Made by a program: the position numbers and the translations under genes | The notes under the pieces: model-generated | Told to the model about the DNA's origin: nothing | Database searches by the model: none | Seen by the model: the letters and a program-made list of their open reading frames with translations, nothing else | DNA from: Candidatus Omnitrophota bacterium | GTDB lineage: Bacteria; Omnitrophota; Gorgyraeia; Zapsychrales; Zapsychraceae | Direction: 5' to 3' | DNA: 64,000 nt | Assembly: GCA_018062515.1 (NCBI GenBank) | Contig: JAGOSC010000005.1 | Location: forward strand, 880 to 64,879 | Part shown: one piece after another, positions 2,502 through 63,573 of the stretch | How positions within the stretch are numbered: the first letter of the stretch is position 1 | Layout: every line of letters begins with the position of its first letter

Positions 2502-3804
2502 ACACCGCAAAATTTCAGATCGAATGAACGTTGGGCTCGTCGGATATGGTGTTGTCGGCCAAGGAGTGGTTCAAATTTTAAAGAAAAACAGACGAACCTT
2601 CCAAGAAACGTATAACACGGATTTTAATCTCGTCGCTATCTGTGACCGCAGTATTCACAAAAAAAACACATCCGGCCTAACTGGAGTTAAGAGGACAAAA
2701 AATATTGATGATGTCCTCAATGATCCTAATATCGATATCGTGATTGAACTTATCGGTGGAAAACAGCCGGCTAAACAAATTGTTGAACGGGCCTTGAAAA
2801 ATGGCAAGGACGTTATCACCGCGAATAAAGATTTAATCGCGAATCATGGCCTCGAGTTATTTAAACTTGCCCAAGACAATGGCCGGCATCTTTACTATGA
2901 ATCTGCCGTTGGTGCTGGTATTCCGATCATCAAAATGATTTCTGAAACGATTGCCGGAAATTCCTTTAAAGGTCTTTACGGAATTATCAACGGGACATGC
3001 AACTTTATCCTCGATGAAATGACCACCAAACATTGTTCCTTTCAAGACGCTTTAAAAGATGCTCAAGCCAGAGGTTACGCGGAGTCTGATCCGACGCTGG
3101 ATGTCAATGGGATGGACACTACCCATAAACTCGCCATTTTAACTTTTCTTGCCTTCGGAAAAATGTTTCCGGTTAAATCTATTTATACAGAAGGGATCAG
3201 TGATATTTCTCACATTGATATTACTTATGCCGAAAGCCTTAATTTATCGATCAAATTACTCGCCATTGCAAAAGAAACAAAAGGAAACTTGGAAGTACGC
3301 GTTCATCCGACGCTGATTTCTAAAAACCATCCATTGTCGACGGTACGCGGAATTTTCAATGCTGTGTATTTAAACACAGATCCTCTGGGAAATGTGATGG
3401 TTTCCGGCGAAGGAGCCGGCCAAATGGCCGCTGCCAGCGGCGTTGTCGCCGATCTTATCAATGCGGCGAATGCTCCCAACAATCCTATGTATTGTAACCG
3501 TTATGTGCAATCAAAAGGCATACGGCTCAGAACCATTGATCATATTGAAACAAAATTTTATATACGTATTCTCGCCGCTGATAAGCCGGGCGTTTTGTCA
3601 CAGGTAACCGGTATTCTCGGTCGCGCTGGTATCGGCATCAATTCGGTAACACAGCAAGCCCATGATGCAGATTTGAAGGCCGTTCCGGTTATTATGTTGA
3701 CCGATTATTCGACGGAAAAAGCGTTACGGAGCGCGCTAAATAAGATTGAAAAATTATCCAGCGTTAAAAGCAAACCTGTAGCAATCAGGATGGAGCAATT
3801 ATAA
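2494..3804 (+). CDS. hom: Homoserine dehydrogenase with C-terminal ACT domain
   Basis: NVGLVGYGVVGQGV Rossmann motif, VITANKDLIA, ESAVGAGIPII, and a C-terminal ACT-like FYIRILAADKPGVLSQVTGILG. An alternative start at ATG 2524 (MNVGLVG) is at least as likely. Confidence 0.9.
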   Translation: MIKHRKISDRMNVGLVGYGVVGQGVVQILKKNRRTFQETYNTDFNLVAICDRSIHKKNTSGLTGVKRTKNIDDVLNDPNIDIVIELIGGKQPAKQIVERALKNGKDVITANKDLIANHGLELFKLAQDNGRHLYYESAVGAGIPIIKMISETIAGNSFKGLYGIINGTCNFILDEMTTKHCSFQDALKDAQARGYAESDPTLDVNGMDTTHKLAILTFLAFGKMFPVKSIYTEGISDISHIDITYAESLNLSIKLLAIAKETKGNLEVRVHPTLISKNHPLSTVRGIFNAVYLNTDPLGNVMVSGEGAGQMAAASGVVADLINAANAPNNPMYCNRYVQSKGIRLRTIDHIETKFYIRILAADKPGVLSQVTGILGRAGIGINSVTQQAHDADLKAVPVIMLTDYSTEKALRSALNKIEKLSSVKSKPVAIRMEQL

Positions 3805-4862
3805 TGAGTTACAAAGGCCTCATTCATCAATACAGAAAATTTTTACCACCGATCAAAGATGAAAACATCGTGACTCTTTTGGAATGCAACACCCCATTGA
3901 TTTATTCCGAGGATTTATCTAAACGCACCGGTTTAAATGTTTATCTTAAATATGAAGGGCTTAATCCGACGGGATCGTTTAAGGACCGCGGAATGACCAT
4001 GGCTATTTCGATGGCCAAGGAAAAAAACGCCAAGATCGTTATGTGCGCCTCGACGGGAAATACATCTGCCTCCGCGGCTGCATACGCCGCTAAAAGCGGG
4101 AGCATGGAATGCGTGGTTCTTATTCCCGAAGGTAATATTTCCCTCGGTAAATTAGCGCAAGCGATGATTCATAATGCCAAAGTCATACAGATTAAAGGAA
4201 ATTTTGATCACGCGCTTGAATTGGTCAAAAAAATTGCCGACGAGTTTCCCGTCGAATTGGTTAATTCGATTAATCCTTATCGCATTGAAGGTCAGAAAAC
4301 AGCGGCATTTGAGATTTGTGATGTACTCGGCGACGCGCCGCATTTTCATGCCATTCCCGTCGGAAACGCAGGAAATATCACCGCGTATTGGAAGGGTTAT
4401 AATGAATACGAACAGGCATGTATCAGCGAAAGGTTGCCGAAAATGCTTGGATTTCAAGCCGCAGGGTCAGCGCCGATTGTTCATAATAAAATTATTGAGA
4501 AGCCGGAAACAATCGCAACAGCGATTAAAATAGGAAACCCGGCGAGCTGGAAACAGGCTGTTGCCGCGCGAGATGAGTCTGGCGGATTAATTGAAGCTGT
4601 CACCGACGAAGAAATTCTTGAGGCTTATAAAATTTTAGCTAATTACAGCGGTGTGTTTTGCGAACCAGCGTCGGCAGCTAGCGTCGCAGGTGTTCTCAAA
4701 TTACATAAACGTGGTTATTTTAAGAATGATTCAGAAGCAAATTTAGTGTGCACCTTGACGGGACATGGACTAAAAGACCCGACTTCTGCTATTAATCTCA
4801 TTGGTAAACCAGTAACGGTTGAGGCTGATATATCGGCTGTACTTAAAGAAATAGGATTATAG
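3804..4862 (+). CDS. thrC: Threonine synthase
   Basis: PLP-lysine motif NPTGSFKDRGMT, ASTGNTSAS, GNAGNITA. Its ATG overlaps the hom stop by 1 nt (TAATG). Confidence 0.9.
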   Translation: MSYKGLIHQYRKFLPPIKDENIVTLLECNTPLIYSEDLSKRTGLNVYLKYEGLNPTGSFKDRGMTMAISMAKEKNAKIVMCASTGNTSASAAAYAAKSGSMECVVLIPEGNISLGKLAQAMIHNAKVIQIKGNFDHALELVKKIADEFPVELVNSINPYRIEGQKTAAFEICDVLGDAPHFHAIPVGNAGNITAYWKGYNEYEQACISERLPKMLGFQAAGSAPIVHNKIIEKPETIATAIKIGNPASWKQAVAARDESGGLIEAVTDEEILEAYKILANYSGVFCEPASAASVAGVLKLHKRGYFKNDSEANLVCTLTGHGLKDPTSAINLIGKPVTVEADISAVLKEIGL

Positions 4863-4929
4863 AAGTCACAAGACACAAAGTCACAAGTCACATCTGACCT
4901 TGTGACATGTGTCCTGTGACATGTGACTT
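4863..4929. repeat. GTCACA-rich imperfect palindrome, copy 1 (two arms of ~31 nt)
   Basis: Left arm is AAGTCACAAGACACAAAGTCACAAGTCACAT. Right arm is CTTGTGACATGTGTCCTGTGACATGTGACTT, and its reverse complement matches the left arm with mismatches and one indel. It fills the thrC-coaB gap and ends 5 nt before the coaB ATG. Confidence 0.8.
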
Positions 4930-4933
4930 ATAG

Positions 4934-5575
4934 ATGAGTAAACTTAAGAACAAATCAGTGCTGATCACATGCGGGCCCACATGGGTTCCGATTGATGATG
5001 TGCGGGTCATTAGTAATATATCGACGGGTGAAATGGGACAAACTCTTGCGCTCGAATGCAAAAAACGAGGAGCTAAAGTTACTTTAATTGAAGGTCCCGT
5101 CGAACGTCGCTTAGTCTCCAAGGGAATTAATGTTAAACCATTTAAATATTTTACCGATTTGGCAAAAATCATTCGGAAAGAATTGAAGAAAAATTACGAT
5201 GTCATCTTTCATGCGGCAGCGGTGAGTGATTACGCCGTGAATAAACCGTCTAAAAACAAAATCAAATCGGATCGATCACGTTTAACTTTGAACTTAGTTC
5301 CATTACCAAAATTGATCCAGTCATTACGGAAATTTAGCCCTAAAGCATTCATTGTTGGATTTAAACTGGAATCTGACATGACGGAAAAAACCGCACTGGA
5401 GTCGACTCGCGGATTATTTAAAAAATCATTTTGTGATCTTGTCATCGCGAACACCGTCCGGAAACAGAAATATCTGGGTTATATTGTTGAGCAAGATAAA
5501 GTTTTAGCGAAGGGAATCACATCGCGCTCGGCAATGGTTAAAAAAATATTAAATACGGTTGAAAATAAAATATGA
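4934..5575 (+). CDS. coaB: Phosphopantothenate-cysteine ligase (CoaB-only DFP-family protein)
   Basis: VLITCGPTWVPIDDVRVISNISTGEMG matches the CoaB pattern ITAGPT.E.IDPVR.I.N.SSGKMG as I recall it. 213 aa, with no CoaC flavoprotein half. Confidence 0.75.
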   Translation: MSKLKNKSVLITCGPTWVPIDDVRVISNISTGEMGQTLALECKKRGAKVTLIEGPVERRLVSKGINVKPFKYFTDLAKIIRKELKKNYDVIFHAAAVSDYAVNKPSKNKIKSDRSRLTLNLVPLPKLIQSLRKFSPKAFIVGFKLESDMTEKTALESTRGLFKKSFCDLVIANTVRKQKYLGYIVEQDKVLAKGITSRSAMVKKILNTVENKI

Positions 5576-6774
5576 AATACGTCGTGATTGTGCCGGATGG
5601 TATGTTCGATCATCCGCTGGAAAATTTTGATAATCGTACACCTCTGGAAATCGCTCGCACACCGAACATGGATTATCTCGCGAGAAATGGAATGAGCGGT
5701 TTGGTGCAGACTATTCCTGATAAGCTTCCCCCAGGGTCTGACGTCGGAAATATGGCCATACTTGGTTATAATCCTGAAATTTCTTTGACTGGGCGATCGC
5801 CGCTGGAAGCTGCGAACATGGGCATCGATTTAAAGGAAGATGAGATTGCATTTCGCTGCAATATGATTACCGAAATGAATGGAATCATGGCAGATTACAG
5901 CGCCGGGCATATCCGGACAGAAGAAGCAGCAATTTTGATCGAAGCGTTAAAAAACCACCTCGGAACTAGAGAGGTAAAATTTTACGCGGGAAAAAGTTAC
6001 CGCCACATTATGGTTCTAAAAACCACGAATCTTAATGAATTTCTAGCGATTAAAACTGTGCCGCCGCATGACATCATCGACCAACCCATTGAAAAGTATT
6101 TGCCGCATGGCCCATTAGCGGATAAACTCATCGGTATTATGGAACAATCCAAAGCGATTTTTGCGGAAAATTCCATTAATCAAGTCCGCATTGATTTAAA
6201 AGAAAATCCGGCGACGATGATTTGGTTGTGGGGACAAGGGACGAAACCAAATCTTATACCTTTTAAAAAAAAATATGGGATTAGCGGATCCATTATTTCC
6301 GCCGTGGATCTTGTCAACGGTTTAGGACGATTGGCCGGATTAAATGTGATTGATGTCCCAGGCGCGACGGGTTACTACGATACCAACTACCAGGGAAAAG
6401 CGGATTATGCGATGGAATCGTTAAAGAAACATGATTATGTCTATATTCACATTGAATCACCCGACGAAGCTGGCCATAACGGAGATGCGCAAGCGAAAAT
6501 TGAAGCGATTGAAAAAATTGATAAGTATGTCGTCGGAACTGTATTAAATCACTTTGGGGACCATCCGGATGCGCGTATCCTAGTTTTACCAGATCATCCG
6601 ACGCCAGTTGTATTACGTACTCATACTCATGAGCCGGTCGGTTTTGCTATGTACGGGCGCGGCATTCCACCCAGCGGTGTAGATTCATACACTGAATCAT
6701 CGACACAAGAAATAGGAATGAAATTCAAGAGTGGCGAAGAAATGATTGAATACTTTATTAAGAAAAATTTATAA
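5572..6774 (+). CDS. Cofactor-independent phosphoglycerate mutase (ApgM) family protein; by context likely the proposed alternative homoserine kinase
   Basis: MKYVVIVPDGMFDHP...RTPNMDYLARNG...LPPGSDVGNMAILGY...IHIESPDEAGHNGD fits the ApgM/metalloenzyme superfamily. It is embedded among hom, thrC and lysC, and no GHMP-type thrB is present. The ATGA overlap with coaB suggests coupling. Confidence 0.7.
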   Translation: MKYVVIVPDGMFDHPLENFDNRTPLEIARTPNMDYLARNGMSGLVQTIPDKLPPGSDVGNMAILGYNPEISLTGRSPLEAANMGIDLKEDEIAFRCNMITEMNGIMADYSAGHIRTEEAAILIEALKNHLGTREVKFYAGKSYRHIMVLKTTNLNEFLAIKTVPPHDIIDQPIEKYLPHGPLADKLIGIMEQSKAIFAENSINQVRIDLKENPATMIWLWGQGTKPNLIPFKKKYGISGSIISAVDLVNGLGRLAGLNVIDVPGATGYYDTNYQGKADYAMESLKKHDYVYIHIESPDEAGHNGDAQAKIEAIEKIDKYVVGTVLNHFGDHPDARILVLPDHPTPVVLRTHTHEPVGFAMYGRGIPPSGVDSYTESSTQEIGMKFKSGEEMIEYFIKKNL

Positions 6775-6776
6775 AT

Positions 6777-6832
6777 GACACAAGATACAAAGTCACAAGT
6801 CACATGTGTCATTGTGACCTGTGTCTTGTGTC
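6777..6832. repeat. GTCACA-rich imperfect palindrome, copy 2
   Basis: GACACAAGA (6777-6785) pairs with TCTTGTGTC (6824-6832), and GTCACAA (6792-6798) pairs with TTGTGAC (6812-6818). The 28-nt core at 6779-6806 matches 4866-4893 at 26 of 28 positions. Confidence 0.8.
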
Positions 6833-6856
6833 TGATATGAAAGGACATAATCACTC

Positions 6857-8083
6857 ATGAAAAAAGATATTGTCGTGCTAAAATTCGGCGGTTCTTCCGT
6901 CGCAAATATTGACCGCATTAAAAACGTAGCCCGGCGCATTGTCGACTCAAAAACGAAAACGAATAATTTAGTCGTTGTCGTTTCGGCCCTGGGAGATACG
7001 ACGGATGAATTAGAAGAAATGGCCTTTAAACTCTGTGATAATCCGCCGGACCGTGAAATGGATTTACTCATGTCAACTGGCGAACAAATTTCTTCTGCGC
7101 TTGTGGCTATGGCGATTAAATCACTGGGTCTTGACGCCATTGCCTTTACCGGCCCGCAAGTCGGAATTAAAACCGATAAATCGCATACAAACGCACGGGT
7201 CATGTCGATAGAATCGCCGCGCATCAAAAAAGCGCATCAGCAAAATAAAATTGTCATCGTCGCCGGTTATCAGGGAATTACCGAGGATGATGAGATTACA
7301 ACACTTGGGCGAGGCGGATCGGATCTGACAGCCGTTGCTTTAGCCGTCGCTCTTAAAGCCAAGGTATGTGAAATTTATACCGACGTGACCGGCATCTTCA
7401 CGACGGATCCACGCAAAGTTAAAGATGCGCGTAAAATAAAAACCATCACGTTTGAAGAAATGCTCGAAATGGCTTCTCTGGGCGCGCAGGTTATGCAGGC
7501 CCGCTCAATCGAAGTCGCCAAACGTTTTAATGTGCCAATCCATGTTCGATCAAGTTTTTCTAAGGAGGAAGGAACCATGATAGTGAAAGACGCACCTAAA
7601 ATCGAAGATATCGCCGTACGCGGCATTACCAGCAATACATCTGAAGCAAAAATTACCATACACGCCGTTCCTGATCAAACAGGTATCGCGGCGAGTATAT
7701 TTACGGAGATTTCTAAAAAAGGTGTCAACGTCGACATTATCGTCCAGAATGTTTCTAACACAGGCTTGACGGATATTTCTTTCACGGTTCCAAAAAAAGA
7801 ATTAGGGAAAGCTTTAGACGCATCCAATAATGTCGCCAAAAAAATTAAAGCCGGGCAAGTTACGTCGGCATCCAACATTGCCCGCGTGTCAATTATCGGT
7901 TCAGGCATGCGCTCGCATAATGGTATTGCAGCTAAGATGTTTGACACATTGGCTAAATTAAAAGTCAATATTGAAATGATTTCCACGTCGGAAATAAGCA
8001 TTTCTTGTATCATTAACGAAAAGCACGCCGAAAAGGCAACACTGGGATTACATAAAGCGTTCGCGCTCGATAAAATAAAATAA
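6857..8083 (+). CDS. lysC: Aspartate kinase with tandem ACT domains
   Basis: VLKFGGSSVA, LGRGGSDLTA, IYTDVTGIFTTDPR. The C-terminal half has two ACT-like repeats. Confidence 0.92.
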   Translation: MKKDIVVLKFGGSSVANIDRIKNVARRIVDSKTKTNNLVVVVSALGDTTDELEEMAFKLCDNPPDREMDLLMSTGEQISSALVAMAIKSLGLDAIAFTGPQVGIKTDKSHTNARVMSIESPRIKKAHQQNKIVIVAGYQGITEDDEITTLGRGGSDLTAVALAVALKAKVCEIYTDVTGIFTTDPRKVKDARKIKTITFEEMLEMASLGAQVMQARSIEVAKRFNVPIHVRSSFSKEEGTMIVKDAPKIEDIAVRGITSNTSEAKITIHAVPDQTGIAASIFTEISKKGVNVDIIVQNVSNTGLTDISFTVPKKELGKALDASNNVAKKIKAGQVTSASNIARVSIIGSGMRSHNGIAAKMFDTLAKLKVNIEMISTSEISISCIINEKHAEKATLGLHKAFALDKIK

Positions 8084-8120: not shown

Positions 8121-9689
8121 ATGCAACGATTTATCATTTATGACACGACATTACGCGACGGCAGTCAAACCGAGGGTGTCAGTTATACGGTAAGCGACAA
8201 AATCAAGATCACCCACAAACTCGACGAGCTGGGCGTGCATTATATCGAAGGCGGTTGGCCGGGTTCTAATCCAAAGGACCAGGAATATTTCGCGCATTTT
8301 AAGGGCAAGAAATTAAAAAGCGCCGTTATTACCGCGTTTGGTTCGACTCGACGGGCTAAATCACCGACGGCAAAAGACGCGAATATCCGCGCACTCATTC
8401 AATCCGGAGCCAAGACCATTTGTATTTTCGGTAAATCGTGGGATTTGCATGTGACCGATGTCATCAAAACAACACTCGAAGAAAATCTAAGCATGATTTA
8501 TGATTCGGTTCAATATCTTAAAAAACAAAAGAAAGAAGTCTTCTACGACGCTGAACATTTTTTTGACGGGTTTAAAAATAATCCGGAATACGCGCTTAAG
8601 GCCGTCTTAACCGCCCAGAAAGCAGGGGCCGATTGTATTATTTTCTGCGATACCAATGGCGGAACCCTTCCAAGTGAAGTTTATAAAATCATCAGCGAAA
8701 TCAAACATCACTTTGATATCCCTTTGGGTATCCATTGCCATCATGATATGGAATTAGGTGTAGCGAATTCAATTGCAGCCGTCGAGGCTGGATGTAAACA
8801 AATTCAAGGAACATTTAATGGTTTAGGCGAACGTTGTGGAAACGCGAATCTTGCGACAATCATCGGCATTTTGCAAACAAAAATGAAATTCGAATGTTTA
8901 CCCAAAGCTAATTTAAACAAGTTAATGGACACTTGTTATTTTATCAGTGAAATCTCGAACAATCTTATTCCGAACAATGCCGCGTTTGTCGGTCATTCAG
9001 CATTCGCGCATAAAGGTGGCGTGCATATTGATGCCATGATGAAAAATCCGCTCGCGTATGAGCATATTGATCCTAAGCTCGTTGGAAATCACAGCCGATT
9101 TATCACATCGGAACTCGCCGGAAAAATGCCGATTGTTAAAAAAGCTGAACAGATGAATGTTGTACTCGATAAAAAGTCCCCTCAAACGAAAAAATTGATG
9201 AAACAACTGCAAGATAAAGAACACAGTGGTTATCAATTTGAAGCGGCGGATGCATCTTTTGAACTGTTTTTGAAACGCCAATTGAAAAAATATAAACCAT
9301 TTTTTATCCTCGAAGGTTTCCGAACCTATTCTGAAAAACGTCAGGATGGACGAGTGTTTGCGGAAGCGACTGTACGCTTAAGTGTTGACGGTCAGGAAAA
9401 GTACGCGGCCGTTGAAGGCGATGGCCCCGTCGACGCATTGGATAAGGCTTTACGGCAAGCATTAAATCCTTTTTATCCCAAGCTCCAGGAAATGCGTTTG
9501 TCTGATTATAAAGTCCGGGTGTTAGATACTAAAGAAGGAACGGGCGCTAAGGTGCGGGTCTTAATCGAAACACATGATGAACATGATTCTTGGACCACCG
9601 TCGGAGTTCATGAAAATATCATTGAAGCCTCGTGGGAAGCCTTAACCGATGCAATCGAATATAAATTATTAAAAGACCAAAAGAAATAG
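8121..9689 (+). CDS. cimA: Citramalate synthase / 2-isopropylmalate synthase family (CimA-type)
   Basis: IYDTTLRDGSQTEGVSYTV, HYIEGGWPGSNPKD, HCHHDMELGVANS. The ~520-aa length with a LeuA-dimer-like C-terminus fits the CimA subgroup. Confidence 0.8.
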   Translation: MQRFIIYDTTLRDGSQTEGVSYTVSDKIKITHKLDELGVHYIEGGWPGSNPKDQEYFAHFKGKKLKSAVITAFGSTRRAKSPTAKDANIRALIQSGAKTICIFGKSWDLHVTDVIKTTLEENLSMIYDSVQYLKKQKKEVFYDAEHFFDGFKNNPEYALKAVLTAQKAGADCIIFCDTNGGTLPSEVYKIISEIKHHFDIPLGIHCHHDMELGVANSIAAVEAGCKQIQGTFNGLGERCGNANLATIIGILQTKMKFECLPKANLNKLMDTCYFISEISNNLIPNNAAFVGHSAFAHKGGVHIDAMMKNPLAYEHIDPKLVGNHSRFITSELAGKMPIVKKAEQMNVVLDKKSPQTKKLMKQLQDKEHSGYQFEAADASFELFLKRQLKKYKPFFILEGFRTYSEKRQDGRVFAEATVRLSVDGQEKYAAVEGDGPVDALDKALRQALNPFYPKLQEMRLSDYKVRVLDTKEGTGAKVRVLIETHDEHDSWTTVGVHENIIEASWEALTDAIEYKLLKDQKK

Positions 9690-9698
9690 AAAAATAAC

Positions 9699-9793
9699 TA
9701 AGTGGTAAGTGGTAAGTGGTAGGTGATAAGTGATATGAAATTTTACTAACCACTCACTGATGACTTACCACATATCACTTACCACTTATCACT
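9699..9793. repeat. AAGTGGT heptamer-based hairpin between cimA and valS
   Basis: (AAGTGGT)x3 then AGGTGATAAGTGATATG at 9700-9737. The reverse complement of 9771-9793 matches 9715-9737 at 20 of 23 positions (33-nt loop). Alternative 12-bp perfect pairing: 9700-9711 with 9776-9787. Confidence 0.8.
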
Positions 9794-9798
9794 CTAAT

Positions 9799-12408
9799 AT
9801 GGAACTAGATAAACGTTTTGATTTTAAAACTGTTGATGCCAAGTGGACGGCTTACTGGGAAAAGAATAATTGTTTTCACGCCACACCCAGCGATAAGAAG
9901 CCTTATGTCATCACCATCCCGCCCCCGAATGTTACCGGTATTCTTCACATGGGACACGCACTCAATAATACTTTGCAAGACATTCTCATCCGTTACAAAC
10001 GCATGCAAGGTTTTGAAACCTGCTGGATGCCGGGAACGGACCATGCTGGGATCGCCACGCAAAACGTCGTCGAGAAACAGTTAGCCAAAGAAGGGACTAA
10101 CCGTCATGCGGTCGGGCGGGAAAAACTTCTGCAACGCTTGTGGGAATGGAAACAGCAGTATGGGGACACCATCATCAATCAACTTAAAGCTATTGGCGCG
10201 TCCTGCGATTGGCCCCGCGCCGCCTTCACGATGGATGAACAATACAGCGAAGCCGTTAAAAAAGTTTTTATTGAGCTTTACAAAAAAGATCTCATTTATC
10301 AAGGCGAGCGAATTATCAATTGGTGCCCGCGTTGCCGCACCGCTTTATCTGATGAAGAAAGCGAACACGAAGAAAAACAGGGCACGTTAACGCATATCAA
10401 ATATCCGCTTAAAGATGATCCAAATCAATTTATTACGGTAGCGACCACCCGTCCTGAAACCATGTTAGGAGATACCGCCGTCGCTGTTCATCCGAATGAT
10501 GAACGCTACAAAAACCTTCATGGTAAAACACTTATTTTACCTATATTACGTCGAGAAATTCCTATTATTACCGATGAATTCGTGGATCCGACATTCGGCA
10601 GCGGAGCTGTCAAAGTAACGCCAGCGCATGATCCCAATGACTTTGATATGGGACGTCGCCATAATCTTAAATTTATCCGTGTCATGAATGAAGATGGAAC
10701 AATGAATGAACAAGCCGGCCCTTTTGCTGGTCAAGACCGTTTTGTCGCCCGCAAAGGTGTCCTCGAAGCTCTTAAAAATGAAGGCGTGTTTGTGAAACAA
10801 GAAGACCACACACATTCAGTCGGGCATTGTTATCGATGTCACTCAATCGTTGAACCTTATTTATCCAAACAATGGTTTGTCCGTATGGAACCGTTGGCTC
10901 GTCCAGCCATTGAAGCTGTCCGTTCCGGAGAAATAAAATTTCATCCCGCGCGTTGGGAAAAAGTCTACATGAACTGGATGGAAAATATCCGGGACTGGTG
11001 TATTTCTCGTCAGATTTGGTGGGGCCATCGCATTCCAGTTTGGTACGATGAACAAGGCAATCCTTATGCGGCGAATAATGAAGAAGAAGCGATCAAACTT
11101 TCCGGAAAGAAAAATTTACGCCAAGATGAAGATGTTCTCGATACCTGGTTCTCGTCGTGGTTATGGCCATTTGCCACGTTTGGTTATCCCAACAAAAATA
11201 AAGATTTGGAATTTTTTTATCCAGGCGATGCGCTTTTTACCGCCTCAGAAATTATCTTTTTTTGGGTGGCGCGTATGATCATGGCCGGATATGAATTCAT
11301 GGGCGATTTACCATTTAAAGACGTTTTCATTCATGGAACCGTGCGCGATGCACAAGGTCGTAAAATGAGCAAATCGCTAGGCAATGCCATTGATCCTCTG
11401 GAAATCGTCGACGAATATGGCGCCGATGCTTTAAGATTTTCTTTGATTCATAATTCCGGGCAAGACTTGTATATATCCAAAGATAATTTTGAGGTAGGAC
11501 GAAACTTTGCGAATAAAATTTGGAATGCTTCACGCCTTATATTAATGAATGTAGAATCCCGCGAATCCAAAAACACGAGTTCACTTGTTCCTATCGATGG
11601 AGATTTGGCCAGCAAGTGGATCGTTTCCCGGTTTTATTCAACATTAAAAAATGTGGAGGAAGCCATCGAGAATTTTCGTTATTCCGAGGCTGAACATTTG
11701 ATTTATGAATTCTTCTGGACGAATTTATGTGATTGGTATTTCGAAATTATTAAAAGTCAAAATCGATGGAATGAACCAGCTGTACAAAGATTGGTAGTAC
11801 AAATTCTCGAAGAATCCTTAAAGATGATGCATCCGTTTATTCCCTTTGTCACCGAGGAGATTTGGGAACATTTAAACAAAGAAAAAGGGCCACTATGCCT
11901 TCAAGATTGGCCTAAAGTTAATCAACAATTCATCAATGCTGAAATTGAGTCAGACATGCAGCAATATATCATGAACACGACTATTGCTATACGTGATATC
12001 CGAGCCACGCGGAATATTCCTCTCAAAAAAAATATACCCGTTAGCTATGATGGAGAGACCGAAGACATTGAACGTTTTCTGAAAAACCAAGATATTGTCA
12101 CATCCCTTACAAACTCTACAGTAAGTCTGGGACGAATAGTAACGGTTAACTGTGCTACTGCAATCGTCGGTAAAATCACATTGACCGTTCCCTTGGAAAA
12201 TCTTATCGACAATGAGGCCGAAAAAAATCGCATCCAAAAACAAATGGACACAGCGACAAAAAGTTATGATTCGTTGAAAAACCGACTCTCCAATGAAAGC
12301 TTTCTCGCTAAAGCCCCCGAAGATGTAGTCAAGAAAGAACAAGAGCGCTTAAAGACGTTAGAACATGAAATTACTGAATTTCAAAACGTTTTAAAAAACT
12401 TGAAATAG
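9799..12408 (+). CDS. valS: Valyl-tRNA synthetase
   Basis: PPPNVTGILHMGHA (HIGH), KMSKSLGN (KMSKS), an editing-domain insertion and a C-terminal coiled coil. I chose the start at ATG 9799 (MELDKRFDF...) because the 13 extra codons from 9760 simply translate the hairpin repeat. Confidence 0.93.
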   Translation: MELDKRFDFKTVDAKWTAYWEKNNCFHATPSDKKPYVITIPPPNVTGILHMGHALNNTLQDILIRYKRMQGFETCWMPGTDHAGIATQNVVEKQLAKEGTNRHAVGREKLLQRLWEWKQQYGDTIINQLKAIGASCDWPRAAFTMDEQYSEAVKKVFIELYKKDLIYQGERIINWCPRCRTALSDEESEHEEKQGTLTHIKYPLKDDPNQFITVATTRPETMLGDTAVAVHPNDERYKNLHGKTLILPILRREIPIITDEFVDPTFGSGAVKVTPAHDPNDFDMGRRHNLKFIRVMNEDGTMNEQAGPFAGQDRFVARKGVLEALKNEGVFVKQEDHTHSVGHCYRCHSIVEPYLSKQWFVRMEPLARPAIEAVRSGEIKFHPARWEKVYMNWMENIRDWCISRQIWWGHRIPVWYDEQGNPYAANNEEEAIKLSGKKNLRQDEDVLDTWFSSWLWPFATFGYPNKNKDLEFFYPGDALFTASEIIFFWVARMIMAGYEFMGDLPFKDVFIHGTVRDAQGRKMSKSLGNAIDPLEIVDEYGADALRFSLIHNSGQDLYISKDNFEVGRNFANKIWNASRLILMNVESRESKNTSSLVPIDGDLASKWIVSRFYSTLKNVEEAIENFRYSEAEHLIYEFFWTNLCDWYFEIIKSQNRWNEPAVQRLVVQILEESLKMMHPFIPFVTEEIWEHLNKEKGPLCLQDWPKVNQQFINAEIESDMQQYIMNTTIAIRDIRATRNIPLKKNIPVSYDGETEDIERFLKNQDIVTSLTNSTVSLGRIVTVNCATAIVGKITLTVPLENLIDNEAEKNRIQKQMDTATKSYDSLKNRLSNESFLAKAPEDVVKKEQERLKTLEHEITEFQNVLKNLK

Positions 12409-63236: not shown

Positions 63237-63326
63237 TGGCGGAGAGGCAGGGGTTCGAACCCTGGGTCCCGTTTCCAGGACAACTGCTTAGCAGGCAGCT
63301 GCAATCGACCACTCTGCCACCTCTCC
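63237..63326 (-). tRNA. tRNA-Ser (anticodon GCT), long variable arm, CCA encoded
   Basis: On the reverse complement: acceptor GGAGAGG/CCTCTCC; D stem GCAG/(C)TGC; anticodon stem GCTGC/GCAGT with loop CTGCTAA; ~18-nt variable arm; T stem CAGGG/CCCTG with loop TTCGAAC; then G-CCA. Confidence 0.85.
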
Positions 63327-63446: not shown

Positions 63447-63573
63447 GAGTTATTGAGTTATTTGTGTTTATTGCGTTTGCTGAGTTAAACACGGCAACTC
63501 AAAAACTCAATCAACCCAATCAACTCGACCAACTCAATTAACTCAATTAACTCAAGAAACTCAACAAACGCAA
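63447..63573. repeat. AACTCAA/TTGAGTT short-period repeat tract with inverted flank
   Basis: About eight AACTCAA-containing units of 7-11 nt at 63496-63565 (e.g. TTAACTCAA x2). The left flank GAGTTATTGAGTTA...TTGCGTTTGCTGAGTT carries the reverse-complement motif. 63471-63486 pairs with 63558-63573 at 15 of 16 positions. Confidence 0.75.

Follow-up and report, generated by a model that had tools for sequence, protein, structure and literature searches.

Paralogous palindromic heptamer-repeat hairpins at the junctions of a conserved threonine operon in Candidatus Omnitrophota

Introduction

What are the two GTCACA-rich palindromes that bracket a coaB-type gene and an apgM-like gene inside the threonine operon of a Candidatus Omnitrophota bacterium? 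In this study, we examined them in a 64,000-nucleotide stretch of DNA (assembly GCA_018062515.1, contig JAGOSC010000005.1, positions 880 to 64,879 of the forward strand). This whole stretch, called the window here, has a G+C content of 40% and was the genome coverage examined for the source organism. The two elements were designated as E1 and E2.

4863 to 4933, plus strand: E1, palindromic heptamer-repeat element occupying the gap between thrC and coaB
6775 to 6841, plus strand: E2, paralogous copy of E1 within the gap between apgM and lysC

Many bacterial genomes contain more heptameric tandem repeats than expected, and how these arise and what they do is essentially unexplained. The original prediction, made from the sequence of the window, read E1 and E2 as mobile elements, as RNA hairpins, or as scars of a cassette insertion. 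We found that their identity as palindromic heptamer-repeat hairpins is well supported; their function is inferred. The favoured explanation, which we hold with about even confidence, is that E1 and E2 are paralogous members of a lineage-specific palindromic heptamer-repeat family. They would be locally copied hairpins, similar to repetitive extragenic palindromic (REP) elements, that act on the polycistronic mRNA.

Results

Both gaps consist of imperfect palindromes built from (A)GTCACA units, as had been predicted and as the sequence and Tandem Repeats Finder both bear out. In each element, four GTCACA, GACACA, or GATACA units stand opposite four TGTGAC or TGTGTC units. E1 reads AA, a left arm GTCACA-A-GACACA-AA-GTCACA-A-GTCACA, a central tctgacct, a right arm TGTGAC-A-TGTGTC-C-TGTGAC-A-TGTGAC, and TT. 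E2 reads AT, a left arm GACACA-A-GATACA-AA-GTCACA-A-GTCACA, and a right arm TGTGTC-AT-TGTGAC-C-TGTGTC-T-TGTGTC. The elements are thus inverted short tandem arrays with about four 7-nt units per arm, in which the 6-nt core pairs and the spacer base is usually unpaired. The spacing between inverted units is variable. Tandem Repeats Finder placed the period-7 arrays at 4863-4892, 4901-4927, 6790-6804, and 6805-6833, with 3.9-4.1 copies per arm. Besides E1, E2, and a third element at 9699-9793 (E3, below), no other period-7 array was found in the 64-kb window.

E1 and E2 are direct repeats of each other. Positions 4857-4918 and 6769-6830 align without gaps and are identical at 53 of 62 sites (~85%). 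A shared 28-nt core had been proposed. Its 26/28 identity and common orientation were confirmed, and its second range is shifted by one nucleotide, so that the core in register lies at 4866-4893 and 6778-6805 (not 6779-6806). The 27-mer CACAAGAYACAAAGTCACAAGTCACAT occurred exactly twice in the window when three mismatches were allowed, and not at all in 100 shuffles. The family therefore counts two copies per 64 kb, both within one operon.

The elements are placed tightly between stop and start codons. The minimum free energy (MFE) stem of E1 spans 4865-4920 and begins 3 nt past the thrC stop codon. The last unit of E1 stops 4 nt ahead of the coaB ATG, where there is no Shine-Dalgarno (SD) sequence. 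In the extended E1 pairing, the thrC stop codon is opposite the bases just 5' of the coaB start codon (pair I5). The stem of E2 spans 6777-6832 and also begins 3 nt past a stop codon, that of apgM. Downstream of E2 follow the lysC SD sequence AAAGGA and the ATG at 6857.

Folding of the elements gave long hairpins. The RNA MFE was -30.8 kcal/mol for E1 and -28.7 kcal/mol for E2, with z-scores of -4.8 and -5.0, and none of 200 shuffles folded equally well. The shapes were unchanged with DNA folding parameters. In the typical fold, the spacer base forms a single mismatch between successive 6-bp helices. Where a unit varies, the opposite arm compensates: GACACA pairs with TGTGTC in E1, and in E2 the same pair is accompanied by GAUACA:UGUGUC, which uses a G-U pair.

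We also searched the window for known signals. No U-tract follows the hairpins of E1, E2, or E3, whose tails are TTATAGATG, TGATATGAA, and CTAATATGG, so they do not qualify as intrinsic terminators; for E1 and E2 this agrees with the earlier description. A terminator scan returned 17 sites against 18.7 expected by chance, and a promoter scan showed no enrichment, its count being that expected by chance. In an Rfam covariance search, the gathering score was reached by tRNAs only; below threshold there were only hairpins resembling miRNA precursors (E 0.3-0.5). The strongly structured non-tRNA gaps of the window are the operon junctions that carry E1, E2, and E3; the 10 further non-tRNA gaps that reach 35 nt were not structured.

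The third junction carries an element with the same architecture and a different unit.

9699 to 9793, plus strand: E3, hairpin with MFE -43.8 and z-score -7.1

The left arm of E3 consists of three AAGTGGT units, AGGTGAT, and AAGTGAT, and its right arm of ACTTACC, ACATATC, ACTTACC, and ACTTATC. E3 begins 10 nt past the cimA stop codon. The mechanically called start of valS, at 9760, falls inside E3, so that valS probably starts at the ATG at 9800, and E3 ends 6 nt before this codon.

We then considered the operon that hosts the elements. The gene order in the window is tyrosine integrase, tRNA-Pro, PilZ, hom, thrC, E1, coaB, apgM, E2, lysC, cimA, and valS.

930 to 2012, same strand as tRNA-Pro: tyrosine integrase
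2013 to 2086: tRNA-Pro
3804 to 4862, plus strand: thrC, PLP-dependent threonine synthase, the gene 5' of E1
4934 to 5575, plus strand: protein with only a CoaB (DFP C-terminal) domain, under every NCBIfam cutoff, overlapping the next gene by 4 nt
5572 to 6774, plus strand: ApgM-family protein that passes the TIGR02535 'proposed homoserine kinase' model, the gene 5' of E2
6857 to 8083, plus strand: lysC, aspartate kinase, the gene 3' of E2
8121 to 9689, plus strand: cimA, citramalate synthase (TIGR00977), the gene 5' of E3

Relatives were collected by exact-protein look-ups and a metagenome scan; their loci are numbered with the prefix L. The order PilZ-hom-thrC-coaB-apgM-lysC-cimA was found in about 35 Omnitrophota loci, with CoaB identity down to 40%, which makes this aspartate-family operon an ancient one. 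In most of these loci, the genes at the thrC-coaB and apgM-lysC junctions overlap or lie less than 20 nt apart, and no repeat is present. In L009, for example, the two junctions measure 4 nt and 22 nt. Because tight or overlapping junctions prevail, the ancestral junction was probably tight, and the wider gaps would be derived.

The direct repeats had been suggested to be scars of the recombination that inserted a two-gene coaB-apgM cassette; on this view they could also be att-type sites. Repeats of 85% identity that flank exactly two genes, with a tyrosine integrase 3 kb upstream, are what such an event might leave. However, the comparison of operon structure among relatives gave it no support, since the gene order is fixed in the ~35 loci and the repeats are mostly missing. 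The ApgM-family protein scored 520.9 bits against the NCBIfam model TIGR02535 (cutoff 446.3). Because it passes this 'proposed homoserine kinase' model, the ApgM-like gene is a native gene of the threonine pathway and likely encodes homoserine kinase. The integrase scored 83.1 bits against the integron-integrase model TIGR02249, whose cutoff is 265, and a 68%-identical integrase was matched at the corresponding place, upstream of PilZ, in L030. E1 and E2 contain no GTTRRRY/RYYYAAC core sites. Finally, E3 has the same architecture at a third junction. Since E3 follows cimA, the bracketing of coaB and apgM is a by-product of hairpins at several junctions. The insertion scenario is thus already contradicted, and we regard it as scarcely credible. 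An integron cassette with attC sites was also considered and rejected: attC cores are absent, the integrase is under the cutoff, and cassette content is not variable.

Several further features of this operon were observed. The 4-nt overlap of the coaB-domain gene with apgM recurs in nearly all of the ~35 loci, which marks a conserved, translationally coupled pair. The tyrosine-recombinase gene ends 1 base before tRNA-Pro on the same strand, and tRNA-Pro also precedes PilZ-hom in L009-L011. Extra DNA of about 1.6 kb is present between apgM and lysC in L020, L023, and L031. Between coaB and apgM, 1.5-2.1 kb of extra DNA is present in L040 and L045, and 577 nt in L012.

We next compared E1 and E2 with the same junctions of the closest relative (CoaB identity 72%), which is represented by three independent samples of identical sequence, L006-L008. 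Its thrC-coaB gap holds a GTCACA/GACACA palindrome, as in the window, and its apgM-lysC gap holds only a one-unit GTCACA-N9-TGTGAC hairpin. E1 of the window matched E1 of L006 at 53 of 63 positions with 3 gaps. E2 of the window matched E1 of the window best and did not match E2 of L006. The 7-8-7 spacer pattern (A/AA/A) and the variant second unit are common to both window elements, and the spacers in E1 of L006 are A/G/A. These sequences are most simply read with E1 as the older element and E2 as a copy or conversion product of it, formed in the window lineage at a site that already carried a small hairpin.

Paralogous palindromes were found in other relatives as well. In L031, the palindromes at 5921-5989 and 12295-12391 are identical at 29 of 30 positions and lie 6.3 kb apart. 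In L038, those at 7785-7931 and 9153-9287 are identical at 90 of 126 positions. Given these two pairs, copying of palindromes within the operon appears to be general.

A rough neighbour-joining tree of ThrC and CoaB was used to place the carriers. Those with GTCACA-type elements (the window and L006, L031, and L034) were interspersed with tight-junction lineages. In the clade of the window itself, the thrC-coaB junction has GTCACA, AAGTATG, or ATTCGAA units, or nothing. These results suggest that hairpins were gained repeatedly, or were gained and lost quickly, at this junction.

E1 and E2 might instead be two insertions of a mobile family, of the REP/REPIN (paired REP) type or resembling miniature inverted-repeat transposable elements, that is moved by a REP-associated tyrosine transposase or another transposase encoded elsewhere. 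We consider this improbable. The window, L031, and L038 do each have near-identical paralogs in separate gaps, the element families are genome-specific, and TTATAG stands on both flanks of E1. The copies of L006 start with CGTC, one of the two REP tags (PMC3733652). However, the window copies have neither a GTAG nor a CGTC tag, as E1 starts with AAGTCACA and E2 with ATGACACA, and the two copies per 64 kb share one operon. E2 and E3 lack a target-site duplication, and the TTATAG of E1 is the palindrome extended through TATA (pair I5). Sister lineages carry different units at the same junction.

A scan with the 19-mer core ACAAAGTCACAAGTCACAT covered 185,579 representative genomes, a set evidently without the source metagenome-assembled genome, so that it gives no genome-wide copy number. 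The core had no copies there beyond four unrelated matches (Planctomycetales, Anaerolineaceae, and two Prevotella), which also weighs against a mobile family. Three of the four were GTCACA arrays with an inverted partner array; in L004, a short TGTGACATGTCACA palindrome stands beside the array. A scan of viral contigs for three successive GTCACAN units gave 22 arrays, 2 of them with inverted partners. Since the viral arrays have few inverted partners and the genomic matches are from unrelated phyla, the similarity across phyla is best explained by convergence of a simple repeat and not by homology. Some of these arrays have other arrays beside them: in L004 (Prevotella, 54-170) and in the viral contigs L084 (10075-10150) and L085 (700-760), GTCACA arrays stand beside AAGTGGC, GCCACAA, and GGTCGTA arrays. 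AAGTGGC resembles the AAGTGGT of E3, and our impression is that many units in the various lineages contain AGT or ACT, as do the TAACTGA and cyanobacterial heptamers discussed below.

Hairpins built from other units occupy the junctions of this operon in further relatives.

L010, thrC-coaB: unit AAGTATG/AAGTAGA
L086, thrC-coaB: unit ATTCGAA
L022, thrC-coaB: unit AGTCCAC
L036, thrC-coaB: unit AAGTTAT
L041, thrC-coaB: unit AGTAACT
L032, coaB-apgM: unit AGTTACT
L029, thrC-coaB: unit AAATTTCYAY
L034, thrC-coaB: unit TGATACN/GTGTCAT, with the coaB AUG inside the stem
L031, thrC-coaB and after cimA: unit GTCACA/GACACA
L038, apgM-lysC and lysC-cimA: unit AATTTCTAATTA

E3-type units (RGTGAT) were found directly after the cimA stop codon in L087 and L089, and L089 is identical to part of E3 at 20 of 22 positions. 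The gene downstream of cimA in these two loci is not valS. The presence of the units after cimA despite a different next gene implies that the element is tied to the 3' end of the gene before it, where the E3 unit family, judging from these sequences, can persist. Within the window, a looser relative of the class adjoins tRNA-Ser (63237-63326, minus strand).

63447 to 63573, no strand assigned: E4, about eight copies of the 9-nt unit AACTCAATN with a partly complementary upstream arm, z-score -3.6

Hairpins of another kind were noted after lysC or cimA in L013 (9074-9148), L026 (9173-9245), and L016 (10716-10824). They are perfect hairpins of 20-28 bp that are not repeat-built and lack clear U-tracts; long U-less hairpins may be general at Omnitrophota operon junctions.

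The recurrence of units raised the question of whether a sequence-specific regulator of the aspartate-family operon, binding DNA or RNA, uses the GTCACA/TGTGAC arrays as operator-like sites. Units of the GTCACA, GACACA, or GATACA type recur in the thrC-coaB gap of distant Omnitrophota (L006, L031, and L034), and the unit sequence is more conserved than exact pairing. In addition, heptamer arrays just 5' of SD-less starts have been proposed as sites of post-transcriptional regulators (PMC4679880). However, entirely different units occupy the same junction in other lineages, and most have none. The spacing of the inverted units is not fixed, and the elements lie inside the operon and not at a promoter, in keeping with the null promoter scan. 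We consider a role as operator very unlikely. A CRP-like TGTGA-N6-TCACA operator was rejected, as TCACA precedes TGTGA here, the reverse of the CRP arrangement, and the half-sites are variably spaced.

Discussion

In this study, we found that E1 and E2 belong to a recurring class of repeat-built, REP-like intergenic hairpins with known but poorly understood precedents. The REP-like or RNA-hairpin reading, which was among those originally offered, remains the best one.

Among published systems, the heptameric simple sequence repeats of Xanthomonas, which occur as inverted pairs, come closest. The GGGAATC arrays of this genus are intergenic and mostly have 4 units; their average distance past the upstream open reading frame (ORF) is 28 nt, and 70-75 convergent inverted pairs of them are present per genome (PMC4692102). 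GGGGAYT heptamers of Nostoc, of the cyanobacterial short tandemly repeated repetitive (STRR) type, have been described as related (Rehm et al. 2015, PMC4692102). E1 and E2 resemble both in having tandem 7-nt units at about four per array, in being intergenic and convergent with the capacity to form a stem-loop or cruciform, and in array lengths that vary between related species. The Xanthomonas and Nostoc repeats lie far nearer the end of the upstream ORF than the next gene, and so do the stems of E1-E3, which begin 3, 3, and 10 nt past the stop codons. Unlike the G-rich Xanthomonas repeats with their G-quadruplex potential, the unit AAGTCAC has no G-tract, and the copies here stay within one operon at 2-3 per 64 kb, whereas Xanthomonas has ~180 dispersed copies. 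The host phylum also differs, and the Omnitrophota elements span the intercistronic gaps from stop to start.

TAACTGA heptamers of Beggiatoaceae, Cyanobacteria, and Bacteroidetes form intergenic arrays of 2-6 copies (MacGregor 2015, PMC4679880). These arrays end a few nucleotides 5' of starts without canonical ribosome-binding sites, and a post-transcriptional role has been proposed (PMC4679880). Similarly, the right arm of E1 ends just before the SD-less coaB start. However, TAACTGA sets are direct in 169 cases and inverted in 1, with the single heptamer dispersed genome-wide (PMC4679880), whereas the arrays here are inverted, hairpin-forming pairs whose units vary by lineage.

By function, REP elements may be the best analogue, and membership of E1 and E2 in this family is not established. 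Like REP elements and bacterial interspersed mosaic elements (BIMEs) of Enterobacteria and Pseudomonas, and like REPINs, they are species-specific imperfect extragenic palindromes, often found in operons after stop codons. REP and BIME elements are thought to be homogenised by gene conversion. Unlike REP elements of 20-40 nt, the stem here measures about 56 nt and consists of tandem heptamers. The GTAG or CGTC tag is missing in the window copies, and only the L006 ortholog starts with CGTCACA; among the window ORFs that were scanned, no REP-associated tyrosine transposase was identified. The RNase III hairpins in the early region of phage T7 are imperfect stems of ~20-25 bp with internal mismatches between the cistrons of a polycistronic transcript. 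E1 and E2 resemble them in sequence as imperfect intercistronic stems; the T7-type sites have no repeat-unit build.

How such hairpins might arise and act can be sketched for the favoured explanation. Within an arm, the unit would multiply by slippage; the element would be copied between neighbouring gaps by template switching or non-allelic gene conversion. Transcribed in the polycistronic mRNA, the element would form a hairpin of ~22-25 bp starting 3-10 nt past the stop codon. REP hairpins are exonuclease barriers; where the stop codon is at most 15 nt away, they also stall ribosomes, and the gene upstream is expressed less (PMC12306157). By analogy with E. coli REP elements, the hairpins here could block 3'-exonucleases, and those less than 15 nt from the stop codon could hinder the terminating ribosome. 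The result would be distinct expression levels for hom-thrC, coaB-apgM, lysC-cimA, and valS. E1 would also bury the SD-less start region of coaB, and at the base of its stem the stop codon would come to lie next to the start codon. Translation of coaB would thereby be kept dependent on that of thrC, in place of the ancestral coupling by overlap.

Several observations weigh against this explanation. Over 19 structured gaps, no asymmetry between the sense and antisense strands was detected: the summed MFE was -663.6 versus -651.2, and 57 versus 56 G-U pairs were counted. The antisense fold of E1 is stronger than the sense fold (-36.1 versus -30.8). With no asymmetry and a better antisense fold of E1, nothing specifically indicates selection on the sense RNA. 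The L006 ortholog pairs less well (z-score -3.3), and its unit composition is better kept than its exact pairing. Furthermore, many relatives have tight junctions and no hairpin, which indicates that the element is dispensable.

Because the test for sense-strand bias was negative, a strong rival is that the hairpins are neutral or selfish by-products of mutation without a function of their own. Slipped-strand expansion of heptamers and intrastrand template switching would produce them. They would be tolerated because the insert folds on itself, loops out, gives no entry to Rho or RNase, and keeps the stop and start codons adjacent. The absence of strand bias in pairing fits this account. So do the fast turnover at the thrC-coaB junction, with unrelated units in one clade (GTCACA, AAGTATG, ATTCGAA, or no gap), the scatter of carriers on the tree among tight-gap lineages, and the frequency of GTCACAN arrays as simple repeats in unrelated viral contigs and phyla. 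However, it is at the same three junctions that hairpins keep appearing, and the window's 10 remaining non-tRNA gaps of 35 nt or longer have none. The E3 unit family has been kept after cimA across relatives at ~56% CoaB identity. Hairpin-templated correction should remove the spacer mismatches, yet they persist, and unit swaps are compensated between the arms. We regard a by-product as plausible but less likely, and keep the REP-like mRNA hairpin as the favoured explanation.

A bolder proposal is that the heptamer-repeat hairpins of Omnitrophota are distinct, actively generated intercistronic regulators, possibly of wider occurrence, which would link the cyanobacterial STRRs, the Xanthomonas arrays, and the TAACTGA repeats. 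Self-expanding unit arrays would then repeatedly colonise the junctions of a conserved operon and tune sub-operon stoichiometry and translational coupling. A dedicated RNA-binding factor may recognise the recurring units that contain AGT or ACU. At present, we consider this proposal rather unlikely.

The recurrence of the hairpins at the junctions of a single conserved operon across an uncultured phylum gives them a wider use. With dozens of Omnitrophota lineages, this operon is a natural comparative series that spans tight junctions, one-unit hairpins, four-unit hairpins, unrelated units at one site, and fresh within-genome paralogs. The series could be used to test the birth, copying, and loss of repeat-built hairpins. 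Combined with metatranscriptomes, it could show whether hairpins partition operon expression in this phylum.

The analysis also corrects the annotation of the locus. The coaB and apgM genes are not an inserted cassette, the ApgM-like gene is a likely homoserine kinase gene, and the valS start is probably to be moved from 9760 to 9800. Elsewhere in the window, four successive giant ORFs of 2640, 1727, 3472, and 2173 amino acids span 30 kb of the plus strand (22019-52088).

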